From assembly GCF_046546335.1 (NCBI RefSeq), contig NZ_JBKGYA010000001.1: a stretch of 24,000 nt of DNA; one strand, written 5' to 3'. The stretch is from Thiohalospira sp. (GTDB lineage Bacteria; Pseudomonadota; Gammaproteobacteria; Thiohalospirales; Thiohalospiraceae). Of this stretch, positions 510 through 22,367 are shown in pieces. A program made the position numbers and the translations under genes. Each line of letters opens with the position of its first letter. The first letter of the stretch is position 1. The notes beneath the pieces were generated by a model, which worked only from the letters and a program-made list of their open reading frames with translations, was not told the origin of the DNA and did not search any database.

Positions 510-2630
510 TCAGTAGGTGAGGTCGTAGGAGAGGGTGATGCTACGACCCTTGCCGGCCGGGGTATACCCGGGCGTGTTGTAGGACTGGGACAGCGGCGTC
601 ATGTACTGCTCGTCCAGCAGGTTGCGGAGGCCGACGCTGACCTTCCCGGGTCCGGCCCCGAAGCGGGCGGTGGCGTCCACCAGGGTATAGCCACTAACCT
701 TGCCCTCGGCGAAGGTCGTGCTGTCCCCGAAGCGCTCGCGATCGAAGACCCGCTTGGCCTGGAGCCGGCCGGACCAGTCGGCATCGGGCTCGTAATCGGC
801 GTGGAGGGTCAGCTCCGGCGGCGTGATCCGGGTCCCGTCCAGGTAGTCATCGGTCTCGCCGTCGTCGTCGGTATCCACCCGCCCCTCCTGCCAGGTAGCG
901 GTGCCCCCCAGGCGCCAGGCGCGGCCGGCCTCCATCTCGCCGGTGAACTCCGCACCGTAGACCTCCTCCTCCTGCCGCAGGACGGCGTAATCCGGCGGAC
1001 CCCCGAAGGTCGCCCCCAGCTCCGAGGTGTTGTAGAAGGCGGTGGCAGTGGCCCGCCAGTCCCGGAAGCGGCCCCGCCAGCCCAGCTCGTAGTTGTCCAC
1101 CACCTGGGCCTCGGGGTTGAGCTCCTCGGCGTCGACGTCGTTGCCCTGGGTGCTCTGAGTGCGCAGGGCGCGTCCGATCTCGGCGACGGTGAAGCCCTGG
1201 CTGAAGCTGGCGAAGAGCTCCTGCTCGGCGGAGAGGTAGCGAACCAGGCCGGCATTGAAGACCGTCTCGTCGTAATCCAGCTCGCCGCCGGTGACGGTGC
1301 CGGAGGTCGAAAAGCCCTCGTCCCGGAAGGTGGGCGCATCGACGGTTACCCGCTCGTGGCGCACCCCACCGCGAACCATCCAGTCCTCCCCCAGCGGGGC
1401 GTTGAGCTGGACGAAGGGGGCGTAGTTGGTCTGGTCGAACTCGCCCATGTTGGTGCGGCCATCGCGGAAGTTCTGGGCCGTGGTCTCCGTCCCGGCGTCG
1501 AGGCCGTAGACGGCGTCCAGCGCCCCGAAGCCGCGCTCGTGGGCCAGGCGCAGGCCGGTGTGCCGGGTCTCCAGGAAGGTCTGGCCGTAGTCGTCGGTAT
1601 AGCCGAAGATGGTCTCGTAGTCCTGGTGGTAGACCTGGGTGGACAGCGTGCCCCCGGCCACGTCCTCCCAGGTGTGGTCCAGGCTGACGTTGAGGTTCTC
1701 GGTCCCCGGGTTGTCCCCCTCGGGCGCTTCGTTCACCGCCGCGGAGGGATTGCCCGGGGAGCCGCCGGATTTCGGGTCCGCCGAATACTCGGCATCCTGG
1801 GTATGGTCGTAGTAGTTCAGGGAGAGGCGCAGGCGCTGATCGGGGGCGACCTGGTAGCCCACCTTGGACTGCAGGTTCAGTTCCGTGGATTCCGCCAGAC
1901 CACCGCCCTGGGAGGGGTAGCCGTCGGAGGGGATCCGCTCGCCGTCGCCGTCGTACCCGACGCCGGTCTCCCCGGCGCTCACGTTGAGGCTGTAGTCCAG
2001 GGCCTCGCTGTTGCCGCGCATGCCCTGGTAGAGCCGGCCCCCGAGGCTGTCGCCGTTCTCGGACTGCCCGGTAAGCTCCACGGCGGTCCGGTTCTCGTGG
2101 CCCTCGGCGTCGGCACCGGACTTGGTGATGAAGTTGATCACGCCGCCGGTGGAGCCGATCCCGTAGGTGGCCACCGCCCCGCGGACCACCTCCACGCGCT
2201 CGATGGCCTCCGGGGCAATGGCGCGCAGGTGCTTCAGACCGTCGCGCAGGACCGCGTTCTGCGGGACCCCGTCGATCATGACCAGAAACTTGCGGCCCCG
2301 GAGCTGCTGGCCGTAGTTGGTGAGGTTCTCCGAGGACTGCCCCATTCCGGGGACCAGGTTGGAGAGGACCTCGCCCAGGTCGTCGGTGGAGCGGGTCTGC
2401 TCCTCGAGGTCCTCCTCTTCAAGCACCGTGACCGAGCCGGGGATATCCGCGATGGAGCGACCCTGGCTGGTCCGGGTGGTGGTGACCTGGACGGCGTCCA
2501 GGCGCTCGGCGCCGCCGTCCTGGGCGGCCACCGGTGCCGAGAGGGCACCGAGGACCAGGGCGGGGACCGCGGCGAGTCCGGAGGTCGTGGCGCCGCAGGA
2601 GCGGGCACCGGAAAGGCGGAAGGTGTTCAT
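510..2630 (-). CDS. TonB-dependent (siderophore-type) outer membrane receptor
   Basis: 706-aa ORF with a signal peptide ending ...SAPVAAQDGG and a TonB-box-like LDAVQVTT. It has plug-domain motifs (IPGSVTVL, RGRKFLVMIDGVPQN, IERVEVVRGAVATYGIGSTGGVINFITK) and a long beta-barrel with an aromatic C-terminus (SITLSYDLTY). GGAG lies 5 nt before the ATG. Confidence 0.9.
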   Translation of the reverse strand: MNTFRLSGARSCGATTSGLAAVPALVLGALSAPVAAQDGGAERLDAVQVTTTRTSQGRSIADIPGSVTVLEEEDLEEQTRSTDDLGEVLSNLVPGMGQSSENLTNYGQQLRGRKFLVMIDGVPQNAVLRDGLKHLRAIAPEAIERVEVVRGAVATYGIGSTGGVINFITKSGADAEGHENRTAVELTGQSENGDSLGGRLYQGMRGNSEALDYSLNVSAGETGVGYDGDGERIPSDGYPSQGGGLAESTELNLQSKVGYQVAPDQRLRLSLNYYDHTQDAEYSADPKSGGSPGNPSAAVNEAPEGDNPGTENLNVSLDHTWEDVAGGTLSTQVYHQDYETIFGYTDDYGQTFLETRHTGLRLAHERGFGALDAVYGLDAGTETTAQNFRDGRTNMGEFDQTNYAPFVQLNAPLGEDWMVRGGVRHERVTVDAPTFRDEGFSTSGTVTGGELDYDETVFNAGLVRYLSAEQELFASFSQGFTVAEIGRALRTQSTQGNDVDAEELNPEAQVVDNYELGWRGRFRDWRATATAFYNTSELGATFGGPPDYAVLRQEEEVYGAEFTGEMEAGRAWRLGGTATWQEGRVDTDDDGETDDYLDGTRITPPELTLHADYEPDADWSGRLQAKRVFDRERFGDSTTFAEGKVSGYTLVDATARFGAGPGKVSVGLRNLLDEQYMTPLSQSYNTPGYTPAGKGRSITLSYDLTY

Positions 2631-2712: not shown

Positions 2713-2795
2713 CAACACGAGGAGCAGGGTCGTTGCGCCCGGCGTGCGGATACGGGATCATCCCCTACCGGATAACTCAGGAATGGAGCGGCAAC

Positions 2796-3266
2796 ATGGC
2801 CTACTGGCTGATGAAGTCGGAGCCCGACGTCTTCGGCATCGACCACCTGGCGGCGATGCCCGGAGGCACCGACCACTGGGACGGGATCCGCAACTATCAG
2901 GTCCGCAACATGATCCGGGACCGGATGCGGCCCGGGGACCAGGCGCTCTTCTACCACTCCAACACCAAGCCGCCGGGCATCGCCGGGCTCATGGAGATCG
3001 TCAGCGAGCCCTACCCCGACCACACCGCCTTCGACCCGGAGGCGAAGTACTACGACCCCAGGTCGGACCCGGACAACCCGCGCTGGTACATGGTGGATGT
3101 CCGCTACATCCGCCACCTCGACCGCTACATCCCGCTGGACGAGCTCAAGGCGCGGCCGGAGCTGGCCGAGATGAAGCTGGTCCAGAAGGGCAACCGGCTC
3201 TCCATCATGCCGGTGACCGAGGACGAGTGGCAGACCATCCTGGCCATGGAGAAGGAGGGGGCGTGA
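2796..3266 (+). CDS. EVE (PUA-like, DUF55/THYN1-like) domain protein
   Basis: This is the C-terminal 156 codons of the artefactual 801..3266 ORF, starting at the ATG at 2796. MAYWLMKSEPDVFGIDHL...WDGIRNYQVRNMIRDRMRPGDQALFYHSN...IAGLMEIVSEPYPD...RWYMVDVRY is the canonical EVE-domain pattern. Confidence 0.88.
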   Translation: MAYWLMKSEPDVFGIDHLAAMPGGTDHWDGIRNYQVRNMIRDRMRPGDQALFYHSNTKPPGIAGLMEIVSEPYPDHTAFDPEAKYYDPRSDPDNPRWYMVDVRYIRHLDRYIPLDELKARPELAEMKLVQKGNRLSIMPVTEDEWQTILAMEKEGA

Positions 3267-3937
3267 TCACCGCCTACCACCAGTGGTCGGTCCCCGAGTC
3301 CCAGCGGCTTCGCCTGGCGCTGGCCGCCAAGGGCGTGGACTTCGAGGCCGTGGCCGTCGCCCCGGATGACGACGCCACCTTCTTCGACCTCGGGATCGCC
3401 CGCACCCTGCCGGTGCTGGTAGACGACCAGGGCACGGTGCACACCGACTTCCCCGCCACCCTCTTCGAGCTGGACGGGATCGCGGGCGGCGAGCCGCTGG
3501 TGGAGGGCGCCATCGACCAGGGAGCCTGGGATGCCCTGCTGGACTGGCGGGAGCAGGCCGAGCCGCTGCTGCAGCGGCTCTACGCGCCGGTGGTCCCCGC
3601 CTTCCGCGACGTGGGCGACGACGACGCCGCCTTCGAGGCGTGGAAGCGCGAGGCCGAGCACCGCTTCGGCATGGGGCTGGAGGCGCTGGCCAACGACCGC
3701 TACGCCGCCTACGAGCAGTTCGCCACCCTCTCCCGCCTGCCGGAGCTGGGGAGGTATCTCGAACAACGACGCTTCTACACCGGCACCCTCTCCGTCGCCG
3801 ACTGCCTGCTCGCCGCCGATCTGGCGCCGCTACAGCAGCTGGACGGCGTGAGCCTGCCGGTGAGTATCATGTACTACATCCAGCGGGTGGAGGCCGCCTG
3901 CGGGGCGGCCACCGCCGATGGCCTGCTGGCCGCCTGA
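3263..3937 (+). CDS. Glutathione S-transferase-like / thioredoxin-fold protein
   Basis: GTG at 3263 overlaps the EVE stop (GTGA). The N-terminus (ITAYHQWSVPESQRLRLALAAKGVDFEAVAV...LPVLVDD) looks like a GST N-terminal thioredoxin fold and is followed by a helical C-terminal half. High GC3 throughout. Family assignment is by motif only. Confidence 0.6.
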   Translation: MITAYHQWSVPESQRLRLALAAKGVDFEAVAVAPDDDATFFDLGIARTLPVLVDDQGTVHTDFPATLFELDGIAGGEPLVEGAIDQGAWDALLDWREQAEPLLQRLYAPVVPAFRDVGDDDAAFEAWKREAEHRFGMGLEALANDRYAAYEQFATLSRLPELGRYLEQRRFYTGTLSVADCLLAADLAPLQQLDGVSLPVSIMYYIQRVEAACGAATADGLLAA

Positions 3938-3961
3938 CCCATCCGAACAAGGAGGCAGATC

Positions 3962-4309
3962 ATGACCCTTGGAGAGCTCCTGCAGTTCCTCGATGCCAAT
4001 ACCAAGCACGACTTCCTCGCCGGCGGGGTGGCCGAGTCCCTGACCAGGGCCCAGAACGGCGAGCACCCCGACCCCATCGCCGGGGAGATCCTCGCCGGGA
4101 TCGCCGAGGGCTGCGGCGCCGCCGATACCGACGCCGAGGTGGAACGCGCCCAGGTGGTCAACAGCATCGGCCCCCTGCGCCTGAAGTACCAGGCCGACGA
4201 CGCCCCGGTGGAGGGCTTCCGCCTCATGCGCGAGACGGTGCTGGCCATCGACGAGGCCTTCGACCAGGAGGCCATCCGGCAGAAGACCGGGGAGGCGCCG
4301 TCGAGCTAG
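3962..4309 (+). CDS. Hypothetical acidic protein (115 aa)
   Basis: Strong SD GGAGG 6 nt before the ATG, GC3-rich codons, and a stem-loop plus T-tract terminator immediately downstream. I recognise no family. Confidence 0.7.
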   Translation: MTLGELLQFLDANTKHDFLAGGVAESLTRAQNGEHPDPIAGEILAGIAEGCGAADTDAEVERAQVVNSIGPLRLKYQADDAPVEGFRLMRETVLAIDEAFDQEAIRQKTGEAPSS

Positions 4310-4335
4310 GGCTGGCAGGTAAGCCAGCCTTTATT
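4310..4335 (+). terminator. Rho-independent terminator
   Basis: GGCTGGC (4310..4316), loop aggtaa, GCCAGCC (4323..4329), followed by TTTATT (4330..4335), directly after the stop at 4309. Confidence 0.65.
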
Positions 4336-4362
4336 GGCGGCGAAGGAGCTGCCGGCGGGCCC

Positions 4363-4842
4363 TCACAGGCCCTCCAGCCGTCGAAGGGCTCTTTCCCAGG
4401 GTAGCCGGCTGCCGCGAGATCGCATGCGCTCGTAGGCGGCCCTGGCTTCGTCTTGAGAGAGCAGCTGCTCGCCAAGCATCTGTTCGACGAGCCACAAGGT
4501 ACCGTGAACCTCCACCCCCTGCTCGCTGGCCAGCTTGCGCAGCGGATTATCCCCCGTCAGCAGCACGCACCCCTGCTCCCGTGCCAGAACGAGCGCAAGC
4601 ATGTCGTATCGACTCGGTGCGGAGTAAGCCGCGGCCTGACGGCCGGCCTCATCGATCAAGTCACCGGACATCGGCAGCAATTCAAGCCCGGCCTCGGGCA
4701 AATCCGGGTGGTGGGATTCCAGCTCGTCGAAGAACAGGATGTCCGGCGTCGCGATACGATGGGGTAACCGAAACAGGACGGAAACCAGTTCCCCCTCCTC
4801 GATATCGATCAGCACATTCGCATCACTGATCAGCAGGCGCAT
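4363..4842 (-). CDS. PIN-like nuclease domain protein (DUF3368/COG2405-like pattern), putative toxin/effector
   Basis: 159 aa with N-terminal MRLLISDANVLID (first PIN Asp). Further acidic positions lie in FFDELE, RYDMLAL and LLTGDNPLRKLA, followed by GVEVHGTLWLVEQML, as in PIN-like COG2405 proteins. The start overlaps the upstream gene by 20 nt, and GGAAG lies 6 nt before the ATG. Confidence 0.7.
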   Translation of the reverse strand: MRLLISDANVLIDIEEGELVSVLFRLPHRIATPDILFFDELESHHPDLPEAGLELLPMSGDLIDEAGRQAAAYSAPSRYDMLALVLAREQGCVLLTGDNPLRKLASEQGVEVHGTLWLVEQMLGEQLLSQDEARAAYERMRSRGSRLPWERALRRLEGL

Positions 4843-5887
4843 GCGCCACTTCCAGATTGCGCTGTGCCCGCAGCTCGGCTAGTGGCACTGCCAGCAGCTC
4901 GGCCGCCTTGGATTCGGAAATCCGGTCCTCACCCAGCGCGCGATAGACCATCTGCGGGAACAGATGCGCCTTTTCGGCGGGGTAGGTACGTGGCTCCTCT
5001 CTCCGCCAGCCATGCTTGCTGAAGTAGCGCGCCATGCGCTCGTAACTCGACGCCTGGAGTATCCCCAGCTGCCGCGCACGGATGACCCACCCCAGCATGC
5101 TCAGGCCATACTCTTCTTTCAGGAGCGCCAGCTCCTGCGGCTCCAGCCAGGTTCGTTTCTGGCCCAGGGATTCCAGCACCGACATCCGGGGAGCGAGAAA
5201 TGCCCCCGCGAAGCGATTGCAGGCCTTTTCTTCTTCCAGGCTTTCCTCGGACAGCCGCCCAGCCAGGATCCGATGGCCGAGTTCGTGAGCCAGGGTGAAG
5301 CGCTGACGATCCCCCGGCCACTCCCTACCCACTACCACAACCGGGTGGCCACCCACCTCCGCGGTCAATCCATCGAAACGGGCAGACGGGTCCACATCCA
5401 CCATCACCACGCGGAAGCCCTGGCCTTCGAGGATATCCACCATGTCGGCAATCGGGCCAAGCCCCAACCCCCAGGCCTGGCGCAGGAGAATGGCCAGCTC
5501 CTCGACATCCTCCTCGCCGGCCACCTCCCCCGGCAGATCGGAGGGGGCCTCGAATCCCCGGGCAAGAGCCGGGAACAACCCCTCAAGCTCCAGTCGACGC
5601 TCGATCTGATCCAGTACGTCGGCCCGGATCCGCTTCTCATCCCGAACGCGCAGGTTGGAACGCTTGCGAAACTCCAGACCCTCGAGGGAGTACGCCGCCG
5701 GGCGCAGGAAATATTCACTCCGCACCCCCAGGGCGCGCCCGAGCCCGATCAACTGTCGGGAATCGGGGGTCTTCTGCCCCTTCTCGAACTGGCTCAGGAG
5801 GGTGTGGCTAATCTCGACCTGTGCGGCCAGGCTGCGCAGGCTGAGACCCGCCGCCTCACGAGCCCGCTTCAAGCGCTCTCCAAGCAT
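4823..5887 (-). CDS. XRE-family HTH fused to an ImmA/IrrE (COG2856, M78-like) zinc metallopeptidase domain
   Basis: 354 aa. The N-terminal HTH is LKRAREAAGLSLRSLAAQVEISHTLLSQFEKGQKTP. The HEXXH motif is TLAHELGHRIL, followed by EEEKACNRFAGAFLAP (the E..AN.FA..LL.P signature of ImmA/IrrE). GGAGG lies 5 nt before the ATG. Confidence 0.9.
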   Translation of the reverse strand: MLGERLKRAREAAGLSLRSLAAQVEISHTLLSQFEKGQKTPDSRQLIGLGRALGVRSEYFLRPAAYSLEGLEFRKRSNLRVRDEKRIRADVLDQIERRLELEGLFPALARGFEAPSDLPGEVAGEEDVEELAILLRQAWGLGLGPIADMVDILEGQGFRVVMVDVDPSARFDGLTAEVGGHPVVVVGREWPGDRQRFTLAHELGHRILAGRLSEESLEEEKACNRFAGAFLAPRMSVLESLGQKRTWLEPQELALLKEEYGLSMLGWVIRARQLGILQASSYERMARYFSKHGWRREEPRTYPAEKAHLFPQMVYRALGEDRISESKAAELLAVPLAELRAQRNLEVAHAPADQ

Positions 5888-5897
5888 GGCCGCCTCC

Positions 5898-5934
5898 GTT
5901 TACAGAATTCATTAATAATTTCCATATTGTAAAC
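5898..5934. promoter_or_regulatory. Perfect 7-bp inverted repeat in the AT-rich divergent control region (candidate XRE operator/promoters)
   Basis: GTTTACA (5898..5904) N23 TGTAAAC (5928..5934) flanks gaattcattaataatttccatat, the most AT-rich stretch of the window. Each arm gives a TTTACA -35-like hexamer on its own strand. It lies immediately upstream of the XRE-ImmA SD. Confidence 0.4.
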
Positions 5935-6047
5935 AGCCTGCGCCCGGAGCGCACCACCCAAGACAGACATCGGCGCCATTGAGGCCCTGGGCTGCCCCCG
6001 CCTGATCGCCCATACTGCGAAGAGGGCAACCCAGAACCGAGAGTGCC

Positions 6048-6290
6048 ATGAAATCGATTTCCGTTTCCCGGGCATCGGGGGAGCTGGAACAGCTGATGGA
6101 TGAGGTCGCCGAATCCCACTGCCCGGTGCTGATCACCGGCTCACATAGCAATGCCGTGCTGATCGGCCAGGATGACTGGGCCGCCATGCGGGAAACGCTG
6201 TTTCTGGAATCGGTCCCCGGGATGGGTCACAGCATCCGCGAGGGGATGGCGACCCCGCTCGGTGACTGCGAATCCGAGCTGGACTGGTAG
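6048..6290 (+). CDS. Phd/YefM-family type II antitoxin (no cognate toxin gene present)
   Basis: 80 aa, MKSISVSRASGELEQLMDEVAESHCPVLITGSHSNAVLIGQDDWAAMRETLFLESVPGM..SIREG. This follows the YefM/Phd pattern (IS.SEAR..L...v.....PvlIT......vL.s.eey..l.ETl.L...P). Confidence 0.85.
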   Translation: MKSISVSRASGELEQLMDEVAESHCPVLITGSHSNAVLIGQDDWAAMRETLFLESVPGMGHSIREGMATPLGDCESELDW

Positions 6291-6333
6291 GGCCGTTACG
6301 AGTCCCGGGCTCCGCATTCCCGGGAGCACCCCC

Positions 6334-7848
6334 TCAGCGCAGGAACAGCTCGTACGCCGGGTTCTCCGTCTCCTCCTCCCAGGCGTAGCCCAGCTCCTGG
6401 AGGAACTGCTGGAAGGCGGGCTCTTCCTCCTCGGGGACCTGGAAGCCGGCGAGGACGCGGCCGTAGTCGGCGCCGTGGTTGCGGTAGTGGAACAGGGAGA
6501 TGTTCCAGTCGGCGTGGAGGTGGCTCAGAAAGCGCAGCAGCGCCCCGGGCCGCTCGGGGAATTCGAAGCGGTAGAGGGTCTCCCGGCCGGCGTGGGGGGC
6601 GCGGCCGCCCACCATGTGGCGGACGTGGAGCTTGGCCATCTCGTTGTCGGTGAGATCCACCACGCCGTAGCCGGCGGCCTCCAGCTTCTCGCGGAGCTCT
6701 TCCTTCTCCGGGGCGCCGGCGTTCATGCGGATACCGACGAAGATGTGGGCCTCGTCTGGGCCGGCGTAGCGGTAGTTGAACTCGGTGATGGAGCGGGTGC
6801 CGATGGCGTTGCAGAAGGCGCGGAAGCTGCCGGGGCGCTCGGGGATGGTCACGGCGAAGAGCGCCTCGCGCCGCTCGCCCAGCTCGGCGCGCTCGGCCAC
6901 GTAGCGCAGCCGGTCGAAGTTGATGTTCGCACCGCTGACCACGGCGGCGAGGTTGGCCCCCTCCAGCCGATGGTCCTCCACGTACTGCTTGAGGCCGGCC
7001 ACGCTGAGCGCCCCGGCCGGCTCGGCGATGGAGCGGGTGTTGTCGAAGATGTCCTTGATGGCCGCACAGATGGCATCGGTGGAGACCAGCACCACCTCGT
7101 CCACGCTCTCGCGCAGGATGCGGAAGGGCTCCTCGCCGATCCGGCGCACGGCCACGCCGTCGGCGAAGATCCCCACCTGTTCCAGCTGGACCCGCTCGCC
7201 GGCGGCCAGGGCGGAGTGCAGCGTGGGGGCGTCCGACGGCTCCACACCGATGATCCGCACCCCGGGGTAGAGGGCCCGGAAGTAGGCGGCCATCCCGGCC
7301 AGGAGGCCGCCGCCACCGACGGGTACGAAGATGGCCTCCAGCGGCTGCGGCGCCTGGCGGGCCAGCTCCATGGCCACCGTCCCCTGCCCGGCGATGACGT
7401 CGGGGTCGTCGTAGGGCGGGATGAAGGCCATCCCGGCCTCCTCCGCGATCTGCATGCAGTGGGCGAAGGCCTCGTCGTAGGAGCTGCCGTGGAGGACGAT
7501 CTCCGCCCCCAGCGCCCGCACCGCCTCGATCTTGATGTCCGGCGTGGTCTTGGGCATGACGATCCGCGCCGGGATCCCCAGCTTGCGCGCCGACAGCGCC
7601 ACCCCCTGGGCGTGGTTGCCGGCGGAGGCGGCGATGACGCCGCGCTCGCGCTGCTCCGGTGCCAGGTGGATGATCTTGTTGTACGCCCCGCGCAGCTTGT
7701 AGGAGAAGACCGGCTGCAGGTCCTCGCGCTTGAGGAAGACCTGGTTGCCCAGCCGCTTGGAGAGGCCGGTAGCCGGGTCCAGCGGCGTCTCCCGGGCCAC
7801 GTCGTAGACCCGGGCGGTGAGGATGCGCTTCAGGTAGGCGTCGAACAT
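6334..7848 (-). CDS. ilvA: Biosynthetic threonine dehydratase (threonine ammonia-lyase)
   Basis: [23 protein letters not shown]...[21 protein letters not shown] (PLP lysine motif), [15 protein letters not shown], and two C-terminal ACT-like regulatory repeats. I chose the ATG at 7848 (504 aa) over the track start at 7962, because the conserved N-terminus begins there and GGAGG lies upstream. Confidence 0.95.
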
Positions 7849-11010: not shown

Positions 11011-12087
11011 ATGCCGCACCTGCCCCGCCGCCCCCTCATCATCGTCATGATCATCACCCTGGCCATCGCCTGGATCGCCTCCGGGGTACTGACCCGGCCG
11101 GAGCCCACCGACGACCAGGCCCGAGAGAGCGAAAAGATGACCGTGGGCGTGGCCGAGCGCCGGGCCGAGCCGGTGGAGGAGCTGCTCGTCCTCCAGGGAG
11201 AGGTGGAGCCGGACAGCCGCATGGTGGTCCGCGCCGAGACCGCGGGACAGCTCGCCGAGTGGGCCGTCTCCCGCGGTGCCCGGGTAGACGAGGGCGAGCT
11301 GCTGGCGCGGCTGAAGATGGACGACCGCCAGGCGAAGTTGCGCCAGGCCGAGGCGCGGGTGGCGGGGGCCGAGAGCGACTTCGAGGCCACCCGGACCATG
11401 GCCGAGGACGACTTCACCGCCGAGCTGCAGGTGGACGTCAAGCGCGCCGAGCTGGAGGCGGCCCGGGCGGAGCTGGAGGCGGTACGCCAGGATATCGAGA
11501 ACACCGAGCTGCGCGCCCCCATGGCGGGCATCGTCAACCGCCGCATCGCCGAGCGCGGCGACTTCCTCGCCGTGGGCGGCCAGCTGGCCGAGATCGTGGT
11601 CAATGACCCCCTCCTCGCCGTGGTCCGCGTCCCCCAGCACCGGATCCGCGAGGTGGAGCCGGGGCAGGAGGCGCGCATCCGCTTCCTGGACGGCTCCACC
11701 GCCACCGGTGAGGTCACCTTCGTCGCCCCGGTGGCCGATCCGGCCACCCGCACCTTCCGGCTGGAGGCGACCTTCCCCAATCCCGAGGGCGACCTCCCCT
11801 CCGGGATCAGCGCCGAGGTCATCATCCCGGTGGCGGAGACCGAGGCCCATCGCGTCTCCCCGGCGCTGCTCAACCTCGACGACGACGGCCGGCTGGGGCT
11901 CAAGGCGGTGGCCGACGGCGAGGTGGTCTTCCACGAGGTGGAGGTCATTCGCGCCGACCGCGACGGCGTCTGGGTCACCGGGGCACCCCCCGAGATCGAC
12001 CTCATCACCGTGGGCGGCGGTTTCGTCCGCCCGGGCGAGGCGGTGGCCACCGAGTCGGCCGCGGCGCCGGGCGAGGGCCGGCCGTGA
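11011..12087 (+). CDS. RND efflux periplasmic adaptor (membrane fusion protein)
   Basis: N-terminal TM anchor (RRPLIIVMIITLAIAWIASGVL), a coiled-coil hairpin (KLRQAEARVAGAESDFEATR...LEAARAELEAVRQDIENTELRAPMAGIV), and beta-barrel/MP domains. The ATG at 11011 follows GGAGG with a 5-nt spacer. The track ORF start at 10531 is an upstream read-through. Confidence 0.85.
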   Translation: MPHLPRRPLIIVMIITLAIAWIASGVLTRPEPTDDQARESEKMTVGVAERRAEPVEELLVLQGEVEPDSRMVVRAETAGQLAEWAVSRGARVDEGELLARLKMDDRQAKLRQAEARVAGAESDFEATRTMAEDDFTAELQVDVKRAELEAARAELEAVRQDIENTELRAPMAGIVNRRIAERGDFLAVGGQLAEIVVNDPLLAVVRVPQHRIREVEPGQEARIRFLDGSTATGEVTFVAPVADPATRTFRLEATFPNPEGDLPSGISAEVIIPVAETEAHRVSPALLNLDDDGRLGLKAVADGEVVFHEVEVIRADRDGVWVTGAPPEIDLITVGGGFVRPGEAVATESAAAPGEGRP

Positions 12088-15000
12088 GGGCGCTCATCGC
12101 CGCCGCGGTGGATCGCGGCCGCGCCGTCCTCCTGCTGCTCGGGATCCTGCTGATCCTCGGGGCGGTGGCCTACGCCACCATCCCCAAGGAGGCCAACCCC
12201 GAGATCGACGTCCCCATCTACTTCGTCACCGTCCCCTACCCCGGGATCACCTCCGAGGATGCCGAACGGCTGCTGCTGCGTCCCCTGGAGCGGGAGCTGC
12301 AGTCGGTGGAGGGGCTGGACGAGATGCGCGCCTGGGCCGGCGAGGGCTTCGCCATGCTGCGGCTGGACTTCGAGCCCGGCTGGGACAGCCGCCAGGCCCT
12401 GGCCGATGTCCGCGAGGAGGTGGACCAGACCGAGCCGGAGCTCCCCGAGGAGGCCGAGGAGCCCCGGGTGAACGAGGTGGACGTCTCGCTGTTCCCGGTG
12501 CTCACCGCCACCCTCTCCGGACCGGTGAGCGAGCGCTCGCTGCTGGAGACCGCCCGCGACCTGCGCGACCGGCTCGAGGCGAGCCCCGGCGTGCTGGAGG
12601 TGGACATCGGCGGCGAGCGCGAGGATGTCATGGAGATCCTGGTGGACCCGCTGGTCATGGAGTCCTACCGGATCTCCTACGCCGAACTCACCCGCGCCAT
12701 CCAGCGCAACAATCAACTCGTCACCGCCGGGGCGGTGGATACCGGGGCCGGCCGCATCGCCATCAAGGTCCCCGGCACCATCGAGGATACCGAGGCGGTG
12801 GAGAATACCGCCCTGCGCGCCGAGGACGGCACCGTGGTCCGCGTGGGGGATGTCGCCGAGGTCCGCCAGACCTACAAGGACCGGGACAGCTTCGCCCGCA
12901 TCGACGGCAACCCCGCGCTCTCCCTGGAGATCCGCAAGCGCACCGGGGCCAACATCCTGGAGGTGGTGGGCGAGGCGCGCCGCACCATCGAGAGCGCCCG
13001 GCAGTCGGGGCCCGAGGCGCTGGAGGTCCGCTACCTCCAGGACGGTGCCGAGGATGTCGCCGACTTCCTGGGCGACCTGGAGAACAACGTCATCACCGCC
13101 GTGCTGCTGGTGGTCCTGGTCATCGTCGCCGCCCTGGGGGTGCGCTCCTCGCTGCTGGTGGCGGTGGCCATCCCCGGCGCCTTCCTGGGCGGGATCCTGG
13201 TCATCCAGCTGCTGGGCTTCACCCTCAACCTGGTGGTCCTCTTCTCCCTCATCCTGGTGGTGGGGATGCTGGTGGACGGCGCCGTGGTGGTGGCGGAGCT
13301 GGCCGACCGCTACATCGCCGAGGGGCGGGCGCGAGCCGCCGCCTACCGCGACGCCGCCATCCGCATGGGCTGGCCGGTGACCGCCGCCATCGCCACCACC
13401 CTGGCAGTCTTCTTCCCCATGCTCTTCTGGCCGGGCATGGTGGGCGAGTTCATCATCTACCTGCCGGCGACGGTCATCATCACCCTGCTGCTCTCCCTGG
13501 CCATGGCGCTGGTCTTCGTCCCCGCCCTGGGGTCGTTCATCGGCCCGCGGCGGGCCACCAACCCGGAGCTGGTGCGCCAGATCCGGGCCGCCGAGACGGG
13601 CCGCTGGGCCGAGCTGGGACGGGCCACCCGCGCCTACACCGACGCCCTGGCCACCGCCTGCCGCCGACCCGGCCTCACCCTGCTCATCACCGCGGTCATC
13701 ACCGCCACCCTCTACGCCGGCTGGGCGGTCCACGGCAAGGGGACCTCCTTCTTCCCCGACATCGAGCCGCGCTTCGCCCAGATCCAGGTCCAGGCCCGCG
13801 GCGACCTCTCGGTCCGGGAGGCGGACGACCTGGTCCGCCGCGTGGAGGAACGCATCGGCGGGACCGACGGCGTAAAGACCCGCTACGCCCGGACCATCGC
13901 CTCCCAGCAGCGCCGCCTGGAGGGCGACTTCGCCGAGGATGTCATCGGCATCGTCCAGCTGGAGCTCACCGACTGGCGCACCCGGCGCCCGGCCGCGGAG
14001 GTCCTGGCCGAGCTCCGCCAGCGCACCGCCGACCTCCCCGGCCTGAAGATCCAGGTGCGGGAGCAGGAGCGCGGCCCCACCGCCGGCAAACCGGTGGCGG
14101 TGGAGGTCCGCGGAGAGCGCGGGGCATCGCTGGACACCGGCGTGGAGCGCGTCCGCGCGGCCATGGAGGAGCTGGGCGGCTTCGTGGACGTGGAGGACGA
14201 CCGGCCGCCGCCGGGGGTGGAGGTGGAGCTGCGGGTGGACCGCGAGGAGGCGGCCCGTCACGGCGTGGATATCGCCCTGCTGGGCCAGGGACTGCAGACG
14301 CTCACCGACGGCGTCCTGCTGGGTACCTACCACCCCGACTTCAGCGACGAGGCGGTGGACATCCGCATGCGGCTGCCGGCGGACGCCCGCCACCTCCAGC
14401 AGCTGGCTACCCTGAACCTGCCCACCGAGCAGGGGCTGGTGCCGCTGCGCAACTTCGCCACCCTGGAGCCGGTGGAGGCCACGGGCCTCATCAAGCGCCG
14501 GGACGCCCGCCGCGCCCACACCGTGGAGGCCGACGTCGCCGCCGACGAGCTGGCGGAGGAGCGCACCAGCGCCCTCCGGCAGGCCCTGACCGGCGCCGAC
14601 CTACCCGAGGGGGTCAGCGTCGCCTTCCGCGGCGAGAGCGAGGACATGGCCGAATCCAGCCAGTTCCTGGTCCGCGCCTTCCTCTTCGCCCTGGCGCTGA
14701 TGGTCGTGATCCTGGTGGTCCAGTTCAATCGCTTCACCCAGGCGGCGCTGGTCCTCTCGGCCATCCTCTTCTCCACCGCCGGGGTGCTGGCCGGGCTGCT
14801 ACTCCGCGGCGAACCCTTCGGAGTCGTCATGAGCGGCATCGGCACCCTCGCCCTGGCCGGCATCGTGGTGAACAACAACATCGTCCTCATCGACACCTAC
14901 AACGTCCTGCGCCGCGACGACGGCCTGGACCCCGTGGAGGCGGCCCTGCGCACCGGCGCCCAGCGCGCCCGGCCGGTGATCCTCACCGCCGTCACCACCA

Positions 15001-15209
15001 TCCTCGGCCTGTCGCCCATGGTCCTGGGCTGGACCATCGACTTCATCGGCCGGGACTTCTACATCGGCGCCCCCTCCACCCAGTACTGGATCCAGCTGGC
15101 CACGGCCATCAGCGGCGGCCTGCTGGTGGCCACGCCGCTGACCCTCTTCTTCACCCCGGCGATGCTGGTCTGGCTGGACCGACGCGCCACCACCCCGACC
15201 ACCGAGTGA
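12084..15209 (+). CDS. RND (AcrB/AcrD/AcrF-type) efflux permease
   Basis: 1041 aa with the 12-TM, two-large-periplasmic-loop layout. N-terminus is AVDRGRAVLLLLGILLILGAVAYATIPKEANPEIDVP. Its GTG overlaps the adaptor stop (GTGA). Confidence 0.93.
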   Translation: MRALIAAAVDRGRAVLLLLGILLILGAVAYATIPKEANPEIDVPIYFVTVPYPGITSEDAERLLLRPLERELQSVEGLDEMRAWAGEGFAMLRLDFEPGWDSRQALADVREEVDQTEPELPEEAEEPRVNEVDVSLFPVLTATLSGPVSERSLLETARDLRDRLEASPGVLEVDIGGEREDVMEILVDPLVMESYRISYAELTRAIQRNNQLVTAGAVDTGAGRIAIKVPGTIEDTEAVENTALRAEDGTVVRVGDVAEVRQTYKDRDSFARIDGNPALSLEIRKRTGANILEVVGEARRTIESARQSGPEALEVRYLQDGAEDVADFLGDLENNVITAVLLVVLVIVAALGVRSSLLVAVAIPGAFLGGILVIQLLGFTLNLVVLFSLILVVGMLVDGAVVVAELADRYIAEGRARAAAYRDAAIRMGWPVTAAIATTLAVFFPMLFWPGMVGEFIIYLPATVIITLLLSLAMALVFVPALGSFIGPRRATNPELVRQIRAAETGRWAELGRATRAYTDALATACRRPGLTLLITAVITATLYAGWAVHGKGTSFFPDIEPRFAQIQVQARGDLSVREADDLVRRVEERIGGTDGVKTRYARTIASQQRRLEGDFAEDVIGIVQLELTDWRTRRPAAEVLAELRQRTADLPGLKIQVREQERGPTAGKPVAVEVRGERGASLDTGVERVRAAMEELGGFVDVEDDRPPPGVEVELRVDREEAARHGVDIALLGQGLQTLTDGVLLGTYHPDFSDEAVDIRMRLPADARHLQQLATLNLPTEQGLVPLRNFATLEPVEATGLIKRRDARRAHTVEADVAADELAEERTSALRQALTGADLPEGVSVAFRGESEDMAESSQFLVRAFLFALALMVVILVVQFNRFTQAALVLSAILFSTAGVLAGLLLRGEPFGVVMSGIGTLALAGIVVNNNIVLIDTYNVLRRDDGLDPVEAALRTGAQRARPVILTAVTTILGLSPMVLGWTIDFIGRDFYIGAPSTQYWIQLATAISGGLLVATPLTLFFTPAMLVWLDRRATTPTTE

Positions 15210-18411: not shown

Positions 18412-19266
18412 ATGGGCGCGCTCAGCATCGAAGAACTGATCCGTCAGAGCCCGCGGCTGGGCTCCCTCCCGGACATCGTGGGGGAACTCAACGCCGCGGC
18501 CGACGACCCCCAGAGCTCGGTAGCCGACCTGGCCGGCATCATCCGCCGCGACCCCGCCCTCTCCGCCCGCCTGCTGGCCATCGTCAACAGCCCCTGGTAC
18601 GGCCTGCGCGGGGAGGTAGCCGACATCGAGCGCGCCGTCTCCCTGGCCGGCACCCAGCAGCTGCGCTTCCTCGCCCTGTCCACCGTCATCGTCCGGCAGT
18701 TCACCAACCTGCCCAATGCCCTGGTGACCATGGACACCTTCTGGAAGCACAGCTTCACCTGCGCCGTGGCGGCCCGCGCCCTGGCCGAGAGTGCCGGCGA
18801 GCGCGATCGGGAGCGCTACTTCCTGGGCGGCCTGCTCCACGACATCGGCAGCCTGCTCATCTACACCACCCTGCCGAGCCTGGCCAAGGAGGCGATCCTC
18901 CACGCCCGCTCGCAGAACCAGCCCATCTACCAGGCCGAGCAGCTCATCTTTGGCTTCGACCACGCCGAGGCGGGCGGGGCGCTGCTGCGCCACTGGGGTC
19001 TGCCGGAGAGCCTCGCCGCCACCGTGGAGGGCCACCACGAGCTGGGCGACACCGGCCACTTCGGCCGCGAGAAGGCGCTGGTCCACCTGGCCAACGGCAT
19101 CGCCAACGCCATCCACCCGAGCAACACCCTCTTCCGCCAGCCGCTGAACTCCGATCCGGCGGCCTGGGGGCTGGCCGGGCTGGATACCGACCAGCTCGAC
19201 GCCACCCTCGCCGCCATGGACGAGCGGGTGGCCGAGGCCATGGGCGTCTTCTACTTCGCCGCCTGA
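18412..19266 (+). CDS. HDOD domain signalling protein
   Basis: 284 aa with LPDIVGELNAAADDPQSSVADLAGIIRRDPALSARLLAIVNSPWYGL, AVSLAGTQQL, GGLLHDIGSLLIY and GFDHAEAGGALLRHWGLPE, the typical HDOD signature. Confidence 0.9.
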   Translation: MGALSIEELIRQSPRLGSLPDIVGELNAAADDPQSSVADLAGIIRRDPALSARLLAIVNSPWYGLRGEVADIERAVSLAGTQQLRFLALSTVIVRQFTNLPNALVTMDTFWKHSFTCAVAARALAESAGERDRERYFLGGLLHDIGSLLIYTTLPSLAKEAILHARSQNQPIYQAEQLIFGFDHAEAGGALLRHWGLPESLAATVEGHHELGDTGHFGREKALVHLANGIANAIHPSNTLFRQPLNSDPAAWGLAGLDTDQLDATLAAMDERVAEAMGVFYFAA

Positions 19267-22200
19267 AGGCCGCGCCCCTTCCAGAGCCAGAAGACCGCCG
19301 GCACCACCAGCAGCGCCAGCACCCAGGCGCTGAGCATGCCCCCCATCATGGGGGCGGCGACGCGGCGCATCACCTCCGAGCCGGTACCACCGCCCACCAT
19401 CACCGTGGCCAGCCCCAGGATCACCGAGACCGCCGTCATGGTGATGGGCCGGACCCGGCGCAGGGCGCCCTCCTCCAGGGCCGCTGCCAGATCGCCGCGA
19501 TCCGGGGACCGCCCCGCGGCCTCCGCGGCGCCCCGGGCGGCCGCCCAGGCCTGGCCGAGGTAGACCACCATGAGCACGCCCAGCTCCACGGCGACCCCGG
19601 CCACGGCGATGAAGCCGACCCCGACCCCCACCGAGAGGTTGTAGCCGAGCCCCCACAGGAGCCAGACGCCGCCCACCAGGGCCAGCGGCAGGGTGGCGAG
19701 GATGAGCAGGACCTCGCCGGCGGCACGGAAGTTGAGGTAGAGCAGCAGGGCGATGAGGACCAGGACCAGCGGCCCCACCACCAGCAGGTGGCCCCGGGCG
19801 CGCTCCATGTTCTGGTACTGGCCGGCCCAGTCCAGGGAGTAGCCCGGGGGCAGCTCCACCTCCTCGGCGACCACCTCCTGCGCCCGCTCCACCCAGCCGG
19901 CGAGGTCGCCGGTGGTGAGATCCACGTGGACCCAGCCCACCGGCCGCGCCTGCTCGCTCTTGACCATCCCCGGGCCCTCCCGGATCCCGATATCGGCCAC
20001 CTCCCCGAGGGCCACCCGCCGCCCGTCGCCGGCGACCACCGGCAGGGAGCGCAGGTCCTCCAGGCTGGTCCGCCGATCGGCGGGGAAGCGCAGGTTCACC
20101 GGGTAGCGCTCCCGGCCCTCCACCGTCTCGGTGACCGGGGCGCCGCCCACGGCCAGTCGCAGGAGCTCCTGGACCTCCGCCATGTCCACGCCGTGGCGGG
20201 CCAGGGCGCGGCGATCCACGTCCACGTCGATGTAGCGCGCCGCCGCCACCCGCTCGGCGAAGGCCGAACGGGTCCCGGGAAGGTCGGCCACCGCCTGCTC
20301 GATCTCCCGGCCGAGGGACTGGATGGTTTCCAGCTCCGGACCGGTGACCCGGATCCCCACCGGCGTACGCACGCCCGAGGAGAGCATGTCGATGCGGGTC
20401 TTGATGGGCATCACCCAGGCGTTGGTCAGCCCCGGCACGTCCACCCGATCGTCGAGTTCCGCCTTGAGCTTCTCCAGGGTCATCCCCTCGCGCCACTCGT
20501 CCCGGGGCTTCAGGGTGATGGTGGTCTCGATCATGGTCATGGGGGCGGGATCGGTGGCCGTCTCCGCCCGCCCGATCTTGCCGAAGGTCCGCTCCACCTC
20601 CGGCACCTGCTGGATGAGCCGGTCGGTGACCTGCAGCAGCTGCTGCGCCTTGCCGGTGGAGAGCCCCGGATCGGTGGTGGGCATGTACATGAGATCGCCC
20701 TCGTCCAGCTCCGGGATGAACTCCGTTCCCAGCTGGTTCAGCGGCCAGACCGTGGCCACCACCAGTAGCGCCGCGGCGGCCACCGTGGCCTTCGGCCAGC
20801 GCAGGACTCCCCGCAACAGGGGGCCGTAGACGCGACCCAGCCACCGCGTCACCGGATGATCACCCTCCCCCCGGACCCGGCCGCGGACGAACAGGGCGAT
20901 GAGCACCGGCACCAGGGTGATGGCCAGCAGCGCGGCGGCGGCCATCGCCCAGGTCTTGGTCCAGGCCAGGGGGGCGAAGAGCCGCCCCTCCTGGCCCTGG
21001 AGGGTGAAGACCGGCAGGAAGCTCACCGTGACGATGAGCAGGGAGAAGAAGAGCGCCGGCCCCACCTCGGCAGTGGCCCGCGCCACCGCCTCCCGCCGGT
21101 CGCCGCCGCGGCCCAGGTGGCGGTGGGTGTTCTCCACCATGACGATGGCCGCGTCCACCATGGTCCCGATGGCCAGGATGATCCCGCCCAGGGACATGAT
21201 GTTCAGGGTCACCCCCTGGAGGTTCATGACGGCGATGGCCGCCAGCACCCCCAGCGGCAGGCTCACGACCACCACCAGGGTGGACCGCAGGTGGTAGAGG
21301 AAGACCGCACAGATGAGCGCCACCACCACCAGCTCGATGCCCAGATGCTTGCCCAGGGTCGCCACGGCGCGGTCGATGAGCCCGGAGCGGTCGTAGGTCT
21401 CCACTACCTCCACGCCGTCGGGGAGGCTGTCGCTCAGCTCCTCCAGCCGCGCCTCCACCCGTTCGATGACCTCGCGGGTGTCGGCGCCGTAGCGGGCGAC
21501 CACGATGCCGCCCACCACCTCGCCCTCGCCGTCGAGTTCGGCGATCCCGCGGCGCGGCGCGGGGCCGCGCCGGATCTCGGCGACATCGGCCAGGCGCACC
21601 GGCGTCCCCTCGTCGGTGGTGGCCACCGAGACCTCGGCCAGGTCGTCGCGATCGCGGAGGTAGCCGCGGCCGCGGACCATGTACTCCGCCTCCGCCAGTT
21701 CCACCACGGAGCCGCCGGACTCCTGGTTGGCCCGCTCCAGGGCGGAGCGGACCCGGTCCACGGAGAGGTCGTGGACGGCCAGCGCCTCCGGGTCCAGGAC
21801 CACCTGGTACTGGCGCTCCATGCCGCCCACCGTGGCCACCTCGGCGACCCCCTCCAGGGCGCCCAGCTCGTACTGGAGGAACCAGTCCTGGAGCGCCGTG
21901 AGCTGGCCCAGGTCGTGGTTGCCGCTGCGATCGGTGAGGGCGTACTGGTAGACCCAGCCCACCCCGGAGGCGTCCGGCCCCAGCTCCGGCTGCGCCCCCT
22001 CGGGGAGATCCCCCTCCACCTGCGCCAGGGATTCCAGCACCCGGGAGCGGGCCCAGTAGGGGTCGGTGCCGTCCTCGAAGACGACGTAGACGAAGGAGTC
22101 CCCGAAGTAGGAGAAGCCGCGCACCGTCTCCGCCCTGGGCACCGAGAGCAGACCGGAGGTCAGGGGGTAGGTGACCTGGTCCTCCACCACCTCCGGCGCC

Positions 22201-22367
22201 TGCCCCGGCCAGGTGGTCTGGACGATGACCTGGGTATCCGAGAGGTCGGGGATGGCGTCCACCGGGGCGCGGTCGGCGGACCAGGCACCCCACGCCGCCA
22301 CAAGCGCGGCCAGGGTCAGGATCAGGAAGCGGTTGGCGAGCGACCAGCGGATGACGGCGGCGATCAT
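19251..22367 (-). CDS. cusA: CusA/CzcA-family heavy-metal efflux RND permease (Cu(I)/Ag(I) type)
   Basis: 1038 aa, MIAAVIRWSLANRFLILTLAAL...IPDLSDTQVIV. By-eye alignment to E. coli CusA keeps the three methionines of the metal site (DLMYMPTT, APMTMIETT, RIDMLSSG). Confidence 0.9.
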   Translation of the reverse strand: MIAAVIRWSLANRFLILTLAALVAAWGAWSADRAPVDAIPDLSDTQVIVQTTWPGQAPEVVEDQVTYPLTSGLLSVPRAETVRGFSYFGDSFVYVVFEDGTDPYWARSRVLESLAQVEGDLPEGAQPELGPDASGVGWVYQYALTDRSGNHDLGQLTALQDWFLQYELGALEGVAEVATVGGMERQYQVVLDPEALAVHDLSVDRVRSALERANQESGGSVVELAEAEYMVRGRGYLRDRDDLAEVSVATTDEGTPVRLADVAEIRRGPAPRRGIAELDGEGEVVGGIVVARYGADTREVIERVEARLEELSDSLPDGVEVVETYDRSGLIDRAVATLGKHLGIELVVVALICAVFLYHLRSTLVVVVSLPLGVLAAIAVMNLQGVTLNIMSLGGIILAIGTMVDAAIVMVENTHRHLGRGGDRREAVARATAEVGPALFFSLLIVTVSFLPVFTLQGQEGRLFAPLAWTKTWAMAAAALLAITLVPVLIALFVRGRVRGEGDHPVTRWLGRVYGPLLRGVLRWPKATVAAAALLVVATVWPLNQLGTEFIPELDEGDLMYMPTTDPGLSTGKAQQLLQVTDRLIQQVPEVERTFGKIGRAETATDPAPMTMIETTITLKPRDEWREGMTLEKLKAELDDRVDVPGLTNAWVMPIKTRIDMLSSGVRTPVGIRVTGPELETIQSLGREIEQAVADLPGTRSAFAERVAAARYIDVDVDRRALARHGVDMAEVQELLRLAVGGAPVTETVEGRERYPVNLRFPADRRTSLEDLRSLPVVAGDGRRVALGEVADIGIREGPGMVKSEQARPVGWVHVDLTTGDLAGWVERAQEVVAEEVELPPGYSLDWAGQYQNMERARGHLLVVGPLVLVLIALLLYLNFRAAGEVLLILATLPLALVGGVWLLWGLGYNLSVGVGVGFIAVAGVAVELGVLMVVYLGQAWAAARGAAEAAGRSPDRGDLAAALEEGALRRVRPITMTAVSVILGLATVMVGGGTGSEVMRRVAAPMMGGMLSAWVLALLVVPAVFWLWKGRGLQAAK

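Follow-up and report, generated by a model that had tools for sequence, protein, structure and literature searches.

Fusions of an Xre-type helix-turn-helix (HTH) domain with COG2856 were described by Makarova et al. in 2009 as frequent operon partners of RelE and PIN toxins, for which a three-component toxin-antitoxin (TA) arrangement was proposed (PMC2701414), and in 2017 Matelska et al. reported that COG2405 (DUF3368), DUF4411 and PIN_14/20/26 are co-transcribed with HTH and DUF955, giving as an example the HTH-DUF955 and COG2405 pair of Geobacillus sp. Y412MC61 (PMC5499597). RosmerTA, as described by Millman et al., consists of a Zn-peptidase antitoxin and a toxin whose function is unknown, and no mutant deleted for rmrA could be isolated, perhaps owing to toxicity (bioRxiv 10.1101/2022.05.11.491447). 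Ernits et al. (2023) found ImmA/RmrA (NetFlax node D25) to be a hub antitoxin, which is combined with many toxins including PIN-like domains, and the RmrTA pair of Gordonia phage Kita has been validated (PMC10440598); in S. pneumoniae, RipAB (spr1629/spr1630) is a member with experimental support (PMC12795458). As for the nuclease, PDC-S70 is a single-gene PIN candidate (PMC12988326), of which one representative lowered the plating of T4, T5 and T7 by 100-1000-fold in E. coli B (PMC12881386). Here we compare with these systems a locus in a 24,000-nucleotide (nt) stretch of Thiohalospira sp. DNA (contig NZ_JBKGYA010000001.1), the whole of which we call the window. The locus consists of two overlapping minus-strand open reading frames (ORFs), both starting with ATG, one for a fusion protein of 354 amino acids (aa) similar to RmrA, with an HTH and an M78 peptidase domain, and one for a 159-aa protein of predicted PIN fold.

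We consider it probable that this locus is a TA-type pair, in which the PIN protein acts as effector and has in the fusion protein a cognate partner that represses and neutralises it. That its role is specifically anti-phage is possible, somewhat short of an even call. The features on which the comparison is based are the following:

4823..5887, minus strand: rmrA-like gene, coding for the HTH-M78 fusion of 354 aa (ORF, Pfam, PADLOC RmrA, AlphaFold2, Foldseek)
4363..4842, minus strand: PIN/DUF3368 nuclease gene, predicted to be of the COG2405/DUF3368 type, 159 aa (ORF, homologues, AlphaFold2, Foldseek)
4823..4842, minus strand: 20 nt shared by the rmrA-like gene (3' end) and the PIN gene (start) (ORF coordinates)
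5273..5287, minus strand: codons of HELGH, H201-E-L-G-H205 (direct sequence reading)
5893-5897, minus strand: Shine-Dalgarno sequence GGAGG of the rmrA-like gene (sequence reading)
5898..5934, not assigned to a strand: predicted operator, a GTTTACA-N23-TGTAAAC inverted repeat (motif comparison with relatives)

An earlier reading of the window, made from its letters alone (the sequence-only reading), had described both ORFs, with these sizes and the 20-nt overlap, and the coordinates on the minus strand agree with it; its domain calls, Xre-type HTH, M78 with an intact HExxH, and PIN/DUF3368, were also correct, as judged from Pfam and, for the PIN protein, from homologues and AlphaFold2.

The linkage of the two genes was followed with the PIN protein as query, in a set of genomes that represents each of 185,579 species once; this gave 357 stretches, the best 80 of which were analysed; the closest match had just 56% identity. 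A full-length homologue of the fusion gene, with 42-53% identity, lies directly upstream and on the same strand in 79 of these 80 loci, and the sole exception is at a contig end, with 135 nt of upstream sequence only. The recurrence of the gene pair in 79/80 loci of different species is far beyond chance, and the loci come from Gamma- and Betaproteobacteria, Chlamydiota, Verrucomicrobia and Desulfobacterota-type metagenome-assembled genomes. The two genes overlap by 20 nt in 36 of the 79 loci, by 17 nt in 33 and by 26 nt in 7, and abut in the other 3, a layout that suggests translational coupling of the PIN gene to the rmrA-like gene. Searching from the fusion protein gave the same picture, with a DUF3368 gene following each of three arbitrarily picked homologues of ~53% identity (Ferrovum, Paraburkholderia and Marinospirillum), and the pairing, whose conservation the sequence-only reading had proposed to check, thus recurs well beyond the source genome.

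The dependence of the PIN gene on its partner is strict: in none of the 79 evaluable loci does it occur without it. A small UPF0175/COG2886 antitoxin ORF was not found at the locus, and an HTH-M78 fusion is upstream both in the window and in 79/79 related loci. The pairing had been called atypical in the sequence-only reading, and this view has to be given up, since an RmrA-like gene is upstream in all evaluable loci of this PIN subfamily and the literature had described the pairing already. Two metagenomic loci (L090 and L091) keep an intact fusion protein (81% identity) next to a PIN gene that is truncated after residue 44 and followed by a convergent ccdA-ccdB pair, and on sequence comparison they would each be a small TA-module cluster with a decayed PIN toxin. 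The truncated PIN genes are at 1277-1410 in L090 and 1244-1423 in L091, and L090 also has a MazE-Fic/Doc pair nearby. The strict dependence of the PIN gene on its partner, the translational coupling and the persistence of the partner in L090 and L091 fit TA logic.

The fusion protein matches Pfam HTH_31 at residues 2-55 (E 5e-11, exceeding the gathering score) and HTH_3 at residues 6-60 (E 1.4e-9, over the cut-off), and the HTH matches, which include HTH_19, together span residues 2-61. Peptidase_M78 is matched at residues 177-264 (E 4.1e-11, 43.2 bits vs a cut-off of 22). The HExxH zinc-binding/catalytic motif is present as HELGH at residues 201-205, followed downstream by the motif EEKACNRFAGAFLAP, and E220, within EEKACNRFAGAFL, is likely the third zinc ligand. 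These four residues (H201, E202, H205 and E220) are invariant in 74/74 fusion proteins encoded beside PIN homologues, and in an alignment of 26 fusion-protein homologues the block WPGDRQRFTxAHELGH...EE.AC.RFAG.FL is invariant, as is ExKAAELL in the C-terminal region. The protein is matched over essentially its whole length by 14 PADLOC RmrA models, the best being PDLC03949 (E 2.6e-50), which aligns residues 4-341 with profile positions 5-331 of 363, and weakly by the NCBIfam model 'spr1629 family repressor/antitoxin' (85.9 bits vs a cut-off of 335).

The AlphaFold2 model of the fusion protein (pLDDT 89.5) begins with the HTH (residues 1-62), which is followed by a short strand (69-73) and a long helix (81-104); after these come the peptidase domain, of alpha/beta type (~125-275), and a C-terminal part made of helices (279-343). 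The linker strand 69-73 is conserved as E-[FY]-R-K-R and, in the model, may be docked on the peptidase sheet. With Foldseek the peptidase part matches PprI/IrrE (8sln, which is bound to single-stranded DNA (ssDNA), and 3dte), CapP (7t5t) and the M. tuberculosis XRE-DUF955 regulator (6cz6), and the HTH part matches CapH, P22 c2, SinR, ImmR and DdrO. A sequence search of the PDB found no solved close relative of the fusion protein, only generic HTH matches and IrrE at E 0.009. The profile match, the HExxH with a downstream Glu and the IrrE-like fold of the predicted model place the protein in the M78/IrrE family.

For the 159-aa protein, a search of 5.8 billion proteins gave 126 homologues of ~160 aa, and nearly all of those listed (~120) carry a precomputed PF11848 match, many of them also PF01850. 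In an alignment of 27 diverse homologues (39-80% identity) D7, D13, E40, D80, G114, W117 and L147-P148-W149 are invariant, and D98 and S77 are at least 90% conserved. The PIN core comprises residues 1-110 and the helical DUF3368 extension residues 112-159 (GTLWLV ... RLPW). The AlphaFold2 model has a pLDDT of 94.7 and a pTM of 0.87, and the 50 listed Foldseek matches in the PDB are essentially all PIN-like, from Pyrococcus and Pyrobaculum PIN proteins to VapC, HARP RNase P and Nob1, and include SSO1118 (2mdt), the structural representative of COG2405. According to this model the protein has a PIN fold and belongs to the COG2405/DUF3368 type, as the sequence-only reading had supposed, and the acidic residues probably cluster in three dimensions, judging from their positions at strand ends and helix starts. 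A PDB sequence search found no solved close relative and only weak PIN/HARP matches. Among the PADLOC candidates, PDC-S70 matches the PIN protein of the window only weakly, though over nearly its full length (E 0.0039, 15.3 bits), and 12 of the 27 relatives match PDC-S70 models at E<=0.01, with a best E of 4.5e-7.

The third element shared by these loci is the inverted repeat at 5898-5934, which abuts the Shine-Dalgarno GGAGG, 10 nt from the ATG of the rmrA-like gene. Its distal arm includes a -35-like TTTACA, and the half-sites, ~30 bp apart from centre to centre, flank an AT-rich spacer. The motif GTTTAYA-N(19-26)-TRTAAAC has a single match in the 24-kb window. Among the 75 loci having enough upstream sequence, the strict motif is found upstream of the fusion gene in 56 and the loose motif in 73, whereas elsewhere in the 546 kb of those loci they occur 0 and 2 times, respectively. 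The repeat is often longer, GGTTTAYA...TRTAAACC. When the recognition helix starts with S-A-N, at least one half-site is GTTTATA in 34 of 38 cases, and the other 36 loci have GTTTACA on both sides (36/36), an association that protein-DNA co-evolution predicts. We regard these comparisons as good computational support for a functional autorepressor role of the HTH domain, which would act on this predicted operator.

Comparison of neighbourhoods leads us to regard the pair as a horizontally mobile, self-contained cassette that moves as a unit. In one relative (L081, 79% PIN identity) the pair is beside a ThiF/JAB pair and prmC-prfA-hemA. In the closest ones (L087-L089, 91% identity) the DNA homology with the window extends from 2728 to 5907 only; synteny is kept on the PIN side (115-aa ORF, GST-like and EVE genes), and upstream an N6 DNA methylase (Pfam N6_Mtase, E 1.5e-64) replaces the phd-like gene and ilvA of the window. 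The interval of ~4310-6334, from ilvA to the 115-aa/GST-like/EVE genes, behaves as a variable hotspot. An AT-richer islet had been proposed here by the sequence-only reading; it is real, although modest, with a GC content of 0.63-0.65 across 4501-6500 vs 0.68-0.75 in the remaining window. An integrative element was considered and rejected, as 4200-6450 contains no tRNA genes and just short chance direct and inverted repeats. Of the immediately downstream genes scanned, ~8/66 encode type I restriction-modification (RM) subunits (HsdR/ResIII, HsdM) or a TOTE conflict-system primase domain, and type I RM genes (hsdM, hsdS, hsdR/ResIII) are directly downstream on the same strand in ~7/66 scanned loci. 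Examples are L082/L083 of Ferrovum myxofaciens (4571-7068), where the pair directly precedes hsdM-hsdS, and L008 (1372-4293). Together with the DNA methylase gene immediately upstream in L087-L089 and the PDC-S70 matches of the PIN relatives, these downstream genes give a modest hint of a defence role.

Taking these elements together, we propose that the RmrA-like protein, probably as a dimer, binds the predicted operator through its Xre HTH; as the conserved operator spans the promoter and the ribosome-binding region, the operon would repress itself, and as the PIN gene would be translationally coupled to the rmrA-like gene, both proteins would be made together. The PIN nuclease would be kept inactive by the fusion protein, most likely through direct binding. 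The switch would be the M78 domain, by analogy with ImmA/ImmR, IrrE/DdrO and CapP/CapH: on a signal from stress or phage, which may be ssDNA, the polypeptide that bears the HTH would be cleaved in cis or in trans, and the operon would thereby be derepressed and the PIN protein released. The free PIN protein, as a Mg2+-dependent RNase of the COG2405/DUF3368 type, could then cut cellular or phage RNA and cause growth arrest. The biological role of such a module may be the stabilisation of a genome island or phage defence by abortive infection.

In a bolder form of this proposal, which we regard as doubtful, the fusion protein is a LexA-like self-cleaving sensor, repressor and antitoxin, with the linker strand 69-73 as a built-in substrate, so that a single cut in cis would free both the operator and the PIN protein and provide abortive-infection immunity. 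The cut would be triggered by ssDNA or a phage product on the M78 domain, as for PprI (8sln) and CapP, and the half-sites, with their spacing of ~30 bp, would form an operator clamp that brackets the whole promoter. If true, this would be the first mechanism for how the peptidase gates toxins in RmrA hub antitoxins, and it would extend to all RosmerTA.

The operator evidence could also be explained if the fusion protein never bound the PIN protein and were a purely transcriptional switch, that is, a fused ImmR and ImmA (or CapH and CapP) that sets the amount of PIN protein, which would be harmless at its basal level and effective after proteolytic derepression. The overlap of the conserved operator with the promoter/Shine-Dalgarno region agrees with this explanation, as do the matches of the HTH and peptidase folds to CapH/CapP, ImmR and IrrE/DdrO, all of them switches that act on transcription alone, and the finding that AlphaFold gave no interface for RmrA-RmrT of Gordonia phage Kita (PMC10440598). 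We nevertheless consider it rather unlikely, because with the 17-26-nt overlap in 76/79 loci any burst of regulator also makes PIN protein, which is a better fit to a stoichiometric complex. Moreover, the conserved ~75 residues C-terminal to the peptidase, with the invariant ExKAAELL, could be a toxin-binding module, and RmrA-type proteins neutralise in trans from separate promoters (PMC10440598, PMC12795458). A second possibility is that the 159-aa protein is not toxic, being a benign RNA-processing or nucleic-acid-binding PIN protein (HARP-like, or a quiet COG2405 member like SSO1118), and that the fusion is a stress regulator with other targets and a small regulon. The Foldseek scores for HARP RNase P are as good as those for VapC toxins, COG2405 is listed with 2-5 active-site residues and a variable (+/-) active-site status (Matelska et al., PMC5499597), and both the sub-threshold Pfam scores given below and the mostly housekeeping flanking genes speak for this possibility as well. 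It is nonetheless improbable, given the patchy, cassette-like spread over phyla with differing neighbours even in close relatives, the dependence of the PIN gene on a partner (79/79) that outlives PIN loss, and the invariance of D7, E40 and D80, with D98 nearly so; the motif, present once in the window and in relatives essentially only upstream of the operon, speaks for self-regulation and not for a regulon. The roles could finally be reversed, with the zinc peptidase as the toxin, the fused Xre domain as its antitoxin and the PIN protein as an accessory, as might be read from the listing of COG2856 as a predicted toxin and Xre as an antitoxin (Makarova et al. 2009, PMC2701414) and from the invariant catalytic residues of the peptidase. 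This is the least probable explanation, and very much so: later experiments make the HTH-M78 proteins antitoxins, since an rmrA deletion was unobtainable (10.1101/2022.05.11.491447) and phage Kita RmrA and RipB neutralise their partners (PMC10440598, PMC12795458), and the survival of the fusion gene alone where the PIN gene is truncated is unexpected for a toxin needing an accessory.

Several observations weigh against the TA pair that we favour over these alternatives. The PIN protein itself scores below the Pfam gathering thresholds, with DUF3368 (PF11848) at residues 112-152 reaching 22.2 bits vs 27.3 and PIN (PF01850) at residues 50-105 reaching 21.5 bits vs 23.6, and no PADLOC RmrT model matches it at E<=1, or any of the 27 relatives at E<=0.01. 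The co-variation of operator and recognition helix is confounded by phylogeny, and a consensus scan of the operator region found no convincing minus-strand sigma-70 promoter, the -10 being weak, so that the promoter assignment for the operon is putative. Toxicity, neutralisation, protein contact, proteolysis and phage protection are proposed by analogy with relatives that carry unrelated toxins, and in the literature we found no experimental study of an RmrA and DUF3368-PIN pair, nor of the role or mechanism of the RmrA peptidase. With regard to phage defence, the neighbours of the cassette are mostly housekeeping genes (66 downstream genes scanned), and among the 2.9 million viral contigs of IMG/VR there are only 9 relatives of the fusion protein; for these two reasons the defence-island signal is modest, and phage carriage as the typical state was rejected on the second. 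One of the IMG/VR contigs (L098, 2989-6090) has a 42%-identical fusion homologue with no PIN gene downstream, and its neighbours, a convergent pair which by eye seems to encode an AAA-ATPase (426 aa) and a RloB/TOPRIM-like protein (240 aa), would be a PARIS/Gabija-like defence pair.

On the other side of the operator, divergent from the rmrA-like gene, the window has a gene for an 80-aa Phd/YefM-family antitoxin (6048-6290, plus strand; Pfam PhdYeFM_antitox, E 9.5e-12; NCBIfam phd_fam). A partner toxin gene is lacking, as only 44 nt separate its stop from that of the convergent ilvA, and we take it for a probable orphan antitoxin at the variable site that also holds the cassette. We considered it as a third component of the module and rejected this, because tblastn against 86 loci gave no real match and the gene is missing from the closest relatives. 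The one sigma-70 site that was found when a promoter for the operon was sought, TTTACA-18-CATATT at 5899-5928, is on the plus strand and faces away from the operon, and was discarded as its promoter; the sigma-70-like reading on this strand arises because the operator is palindromic. Through this site the RmrA-like repressor might also control the divergent orphan phd-like gene.

Convergent with the PIN gene is a 115-aa ORF (3962-4309, plus strand), which has no Pfam or NCBIfam match. The closest relative retains it in an unchanged gene neighbourhood (L087, 2193-2540), and in other genomes it is not linked to the cassette. The remaining window, read by eye, looks like ordinary core and accessory genes of a high-GC gammaproteobacterium, with many long opposite-strand ORFs that are high-GC artefacts. 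The candidates picked out by eye, at 510-2630 (minus), 12084-15209 (plus), 19251-22367 (minus), 22367-23659 (minus) and 18412-19266 (plus), comprise a TonB-dependent receptor, two RND-type efflux pumps, one of them CusA-like with a CusB-like adaptor bearing a His/Met-rich tail, and an HDOD-domain protein.

Among the described systems, the locus appears to work like RosmerTA and to belong to the broader Xre-COG2856/PIN class; in profile comparison, its RmrA component is the only one that matches the PADLOC RosmerTA profiles. It shares with RosmerTA the full-length RmrA match, the N-terminal Xre HTH followed by the M78 zinc peptidase, and the bicistronic operon, and within the cassette subfamily the antitoxin gene precedes the PIN gene and overlaps with it. 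It differs in the effector, which is a DUF3368/COG2405-type PIN protein and matches none of the PADLOC RmrT models, whereas of the validated RmrTs one has no known function, that of Gordonia phage Kita depolarises membranes, and RipA targets DnaN. The link to RosmerTA with a different toxin, which the sequence-only reading had drawn, therefore stands. The prediction of Xre-COG2856(DUF955) with PIN describes exactly the layout of the cassette, in which the gene for an HTH-DUF955 fusion lies upstream of one for a PIN-like protein. The earlier reports of this combination are predictions only, without the operator, an analysis of how strict the linkage is in the subfamily, or structural models, and the subfamily described here is, unlike theirs, predominantly proteobacterial, chlamydial and verrucomicrobial. 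The VapBC-like pairs of UPF0175 (COG2886) and COG2405 have the same broad PIN subfamily, with its C-terminal helical extension, combined with a small DNA-binding antitoxin, in place of which the cassette has the 354-aa HTH-peptidase, and PDC-S70, of the same broad subfamily, is defined as a single-gene candidate, whereas the cassette has two genes.

ImmR/ImmA of ICEBs1, DdrO/IrrE-PprI of Deinococcus and CapH/CapP of CBASS are built from the same Xre repressor and M78 domains, with the same folds, and the best structural match to the peptidase of the fusion is the ssDNA-bound PprI (8sln). In these systems site-specific proteolysis inactivates the repressor after a DNA-damage or mobile-element signal, and by analogy the cassette may follow a similar logic. 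It differs from them in having repressor and peptidase in one polypeptide; in controlling a co-translated nuclease, whereas the known systems control an integrative and conjugative element, a repair regulon and the CBASS operon; and in its helical C-terminal region, where IrrE and CapP have a GAF-like sensor domain.

Reports of 2009, 2017 and 2023 had foreseen the pairing, so that finding it in this locus is unsurprising, and what is new here are the strict linkage statistics, the confident models and the conserved, co-varying predicted operator. RmrA-type HTH-peptidases are the hub antitoxin of a combinatorial TA/defence network, and this subfamily should be a convenient model for the role of their peptidase, because the linkage is strict, the nuclease fold is well understood, the models are confident and the predicted operator has sharp limits and is kept from phylum to phylum, so that DNA binding and derepression can be assayed directly. 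In annotation, the pair would be better described as a RosmerTA-like Xre-M78/PIN toxin-antitoxin module than as 'XRE regulator + hypothetical protein'.

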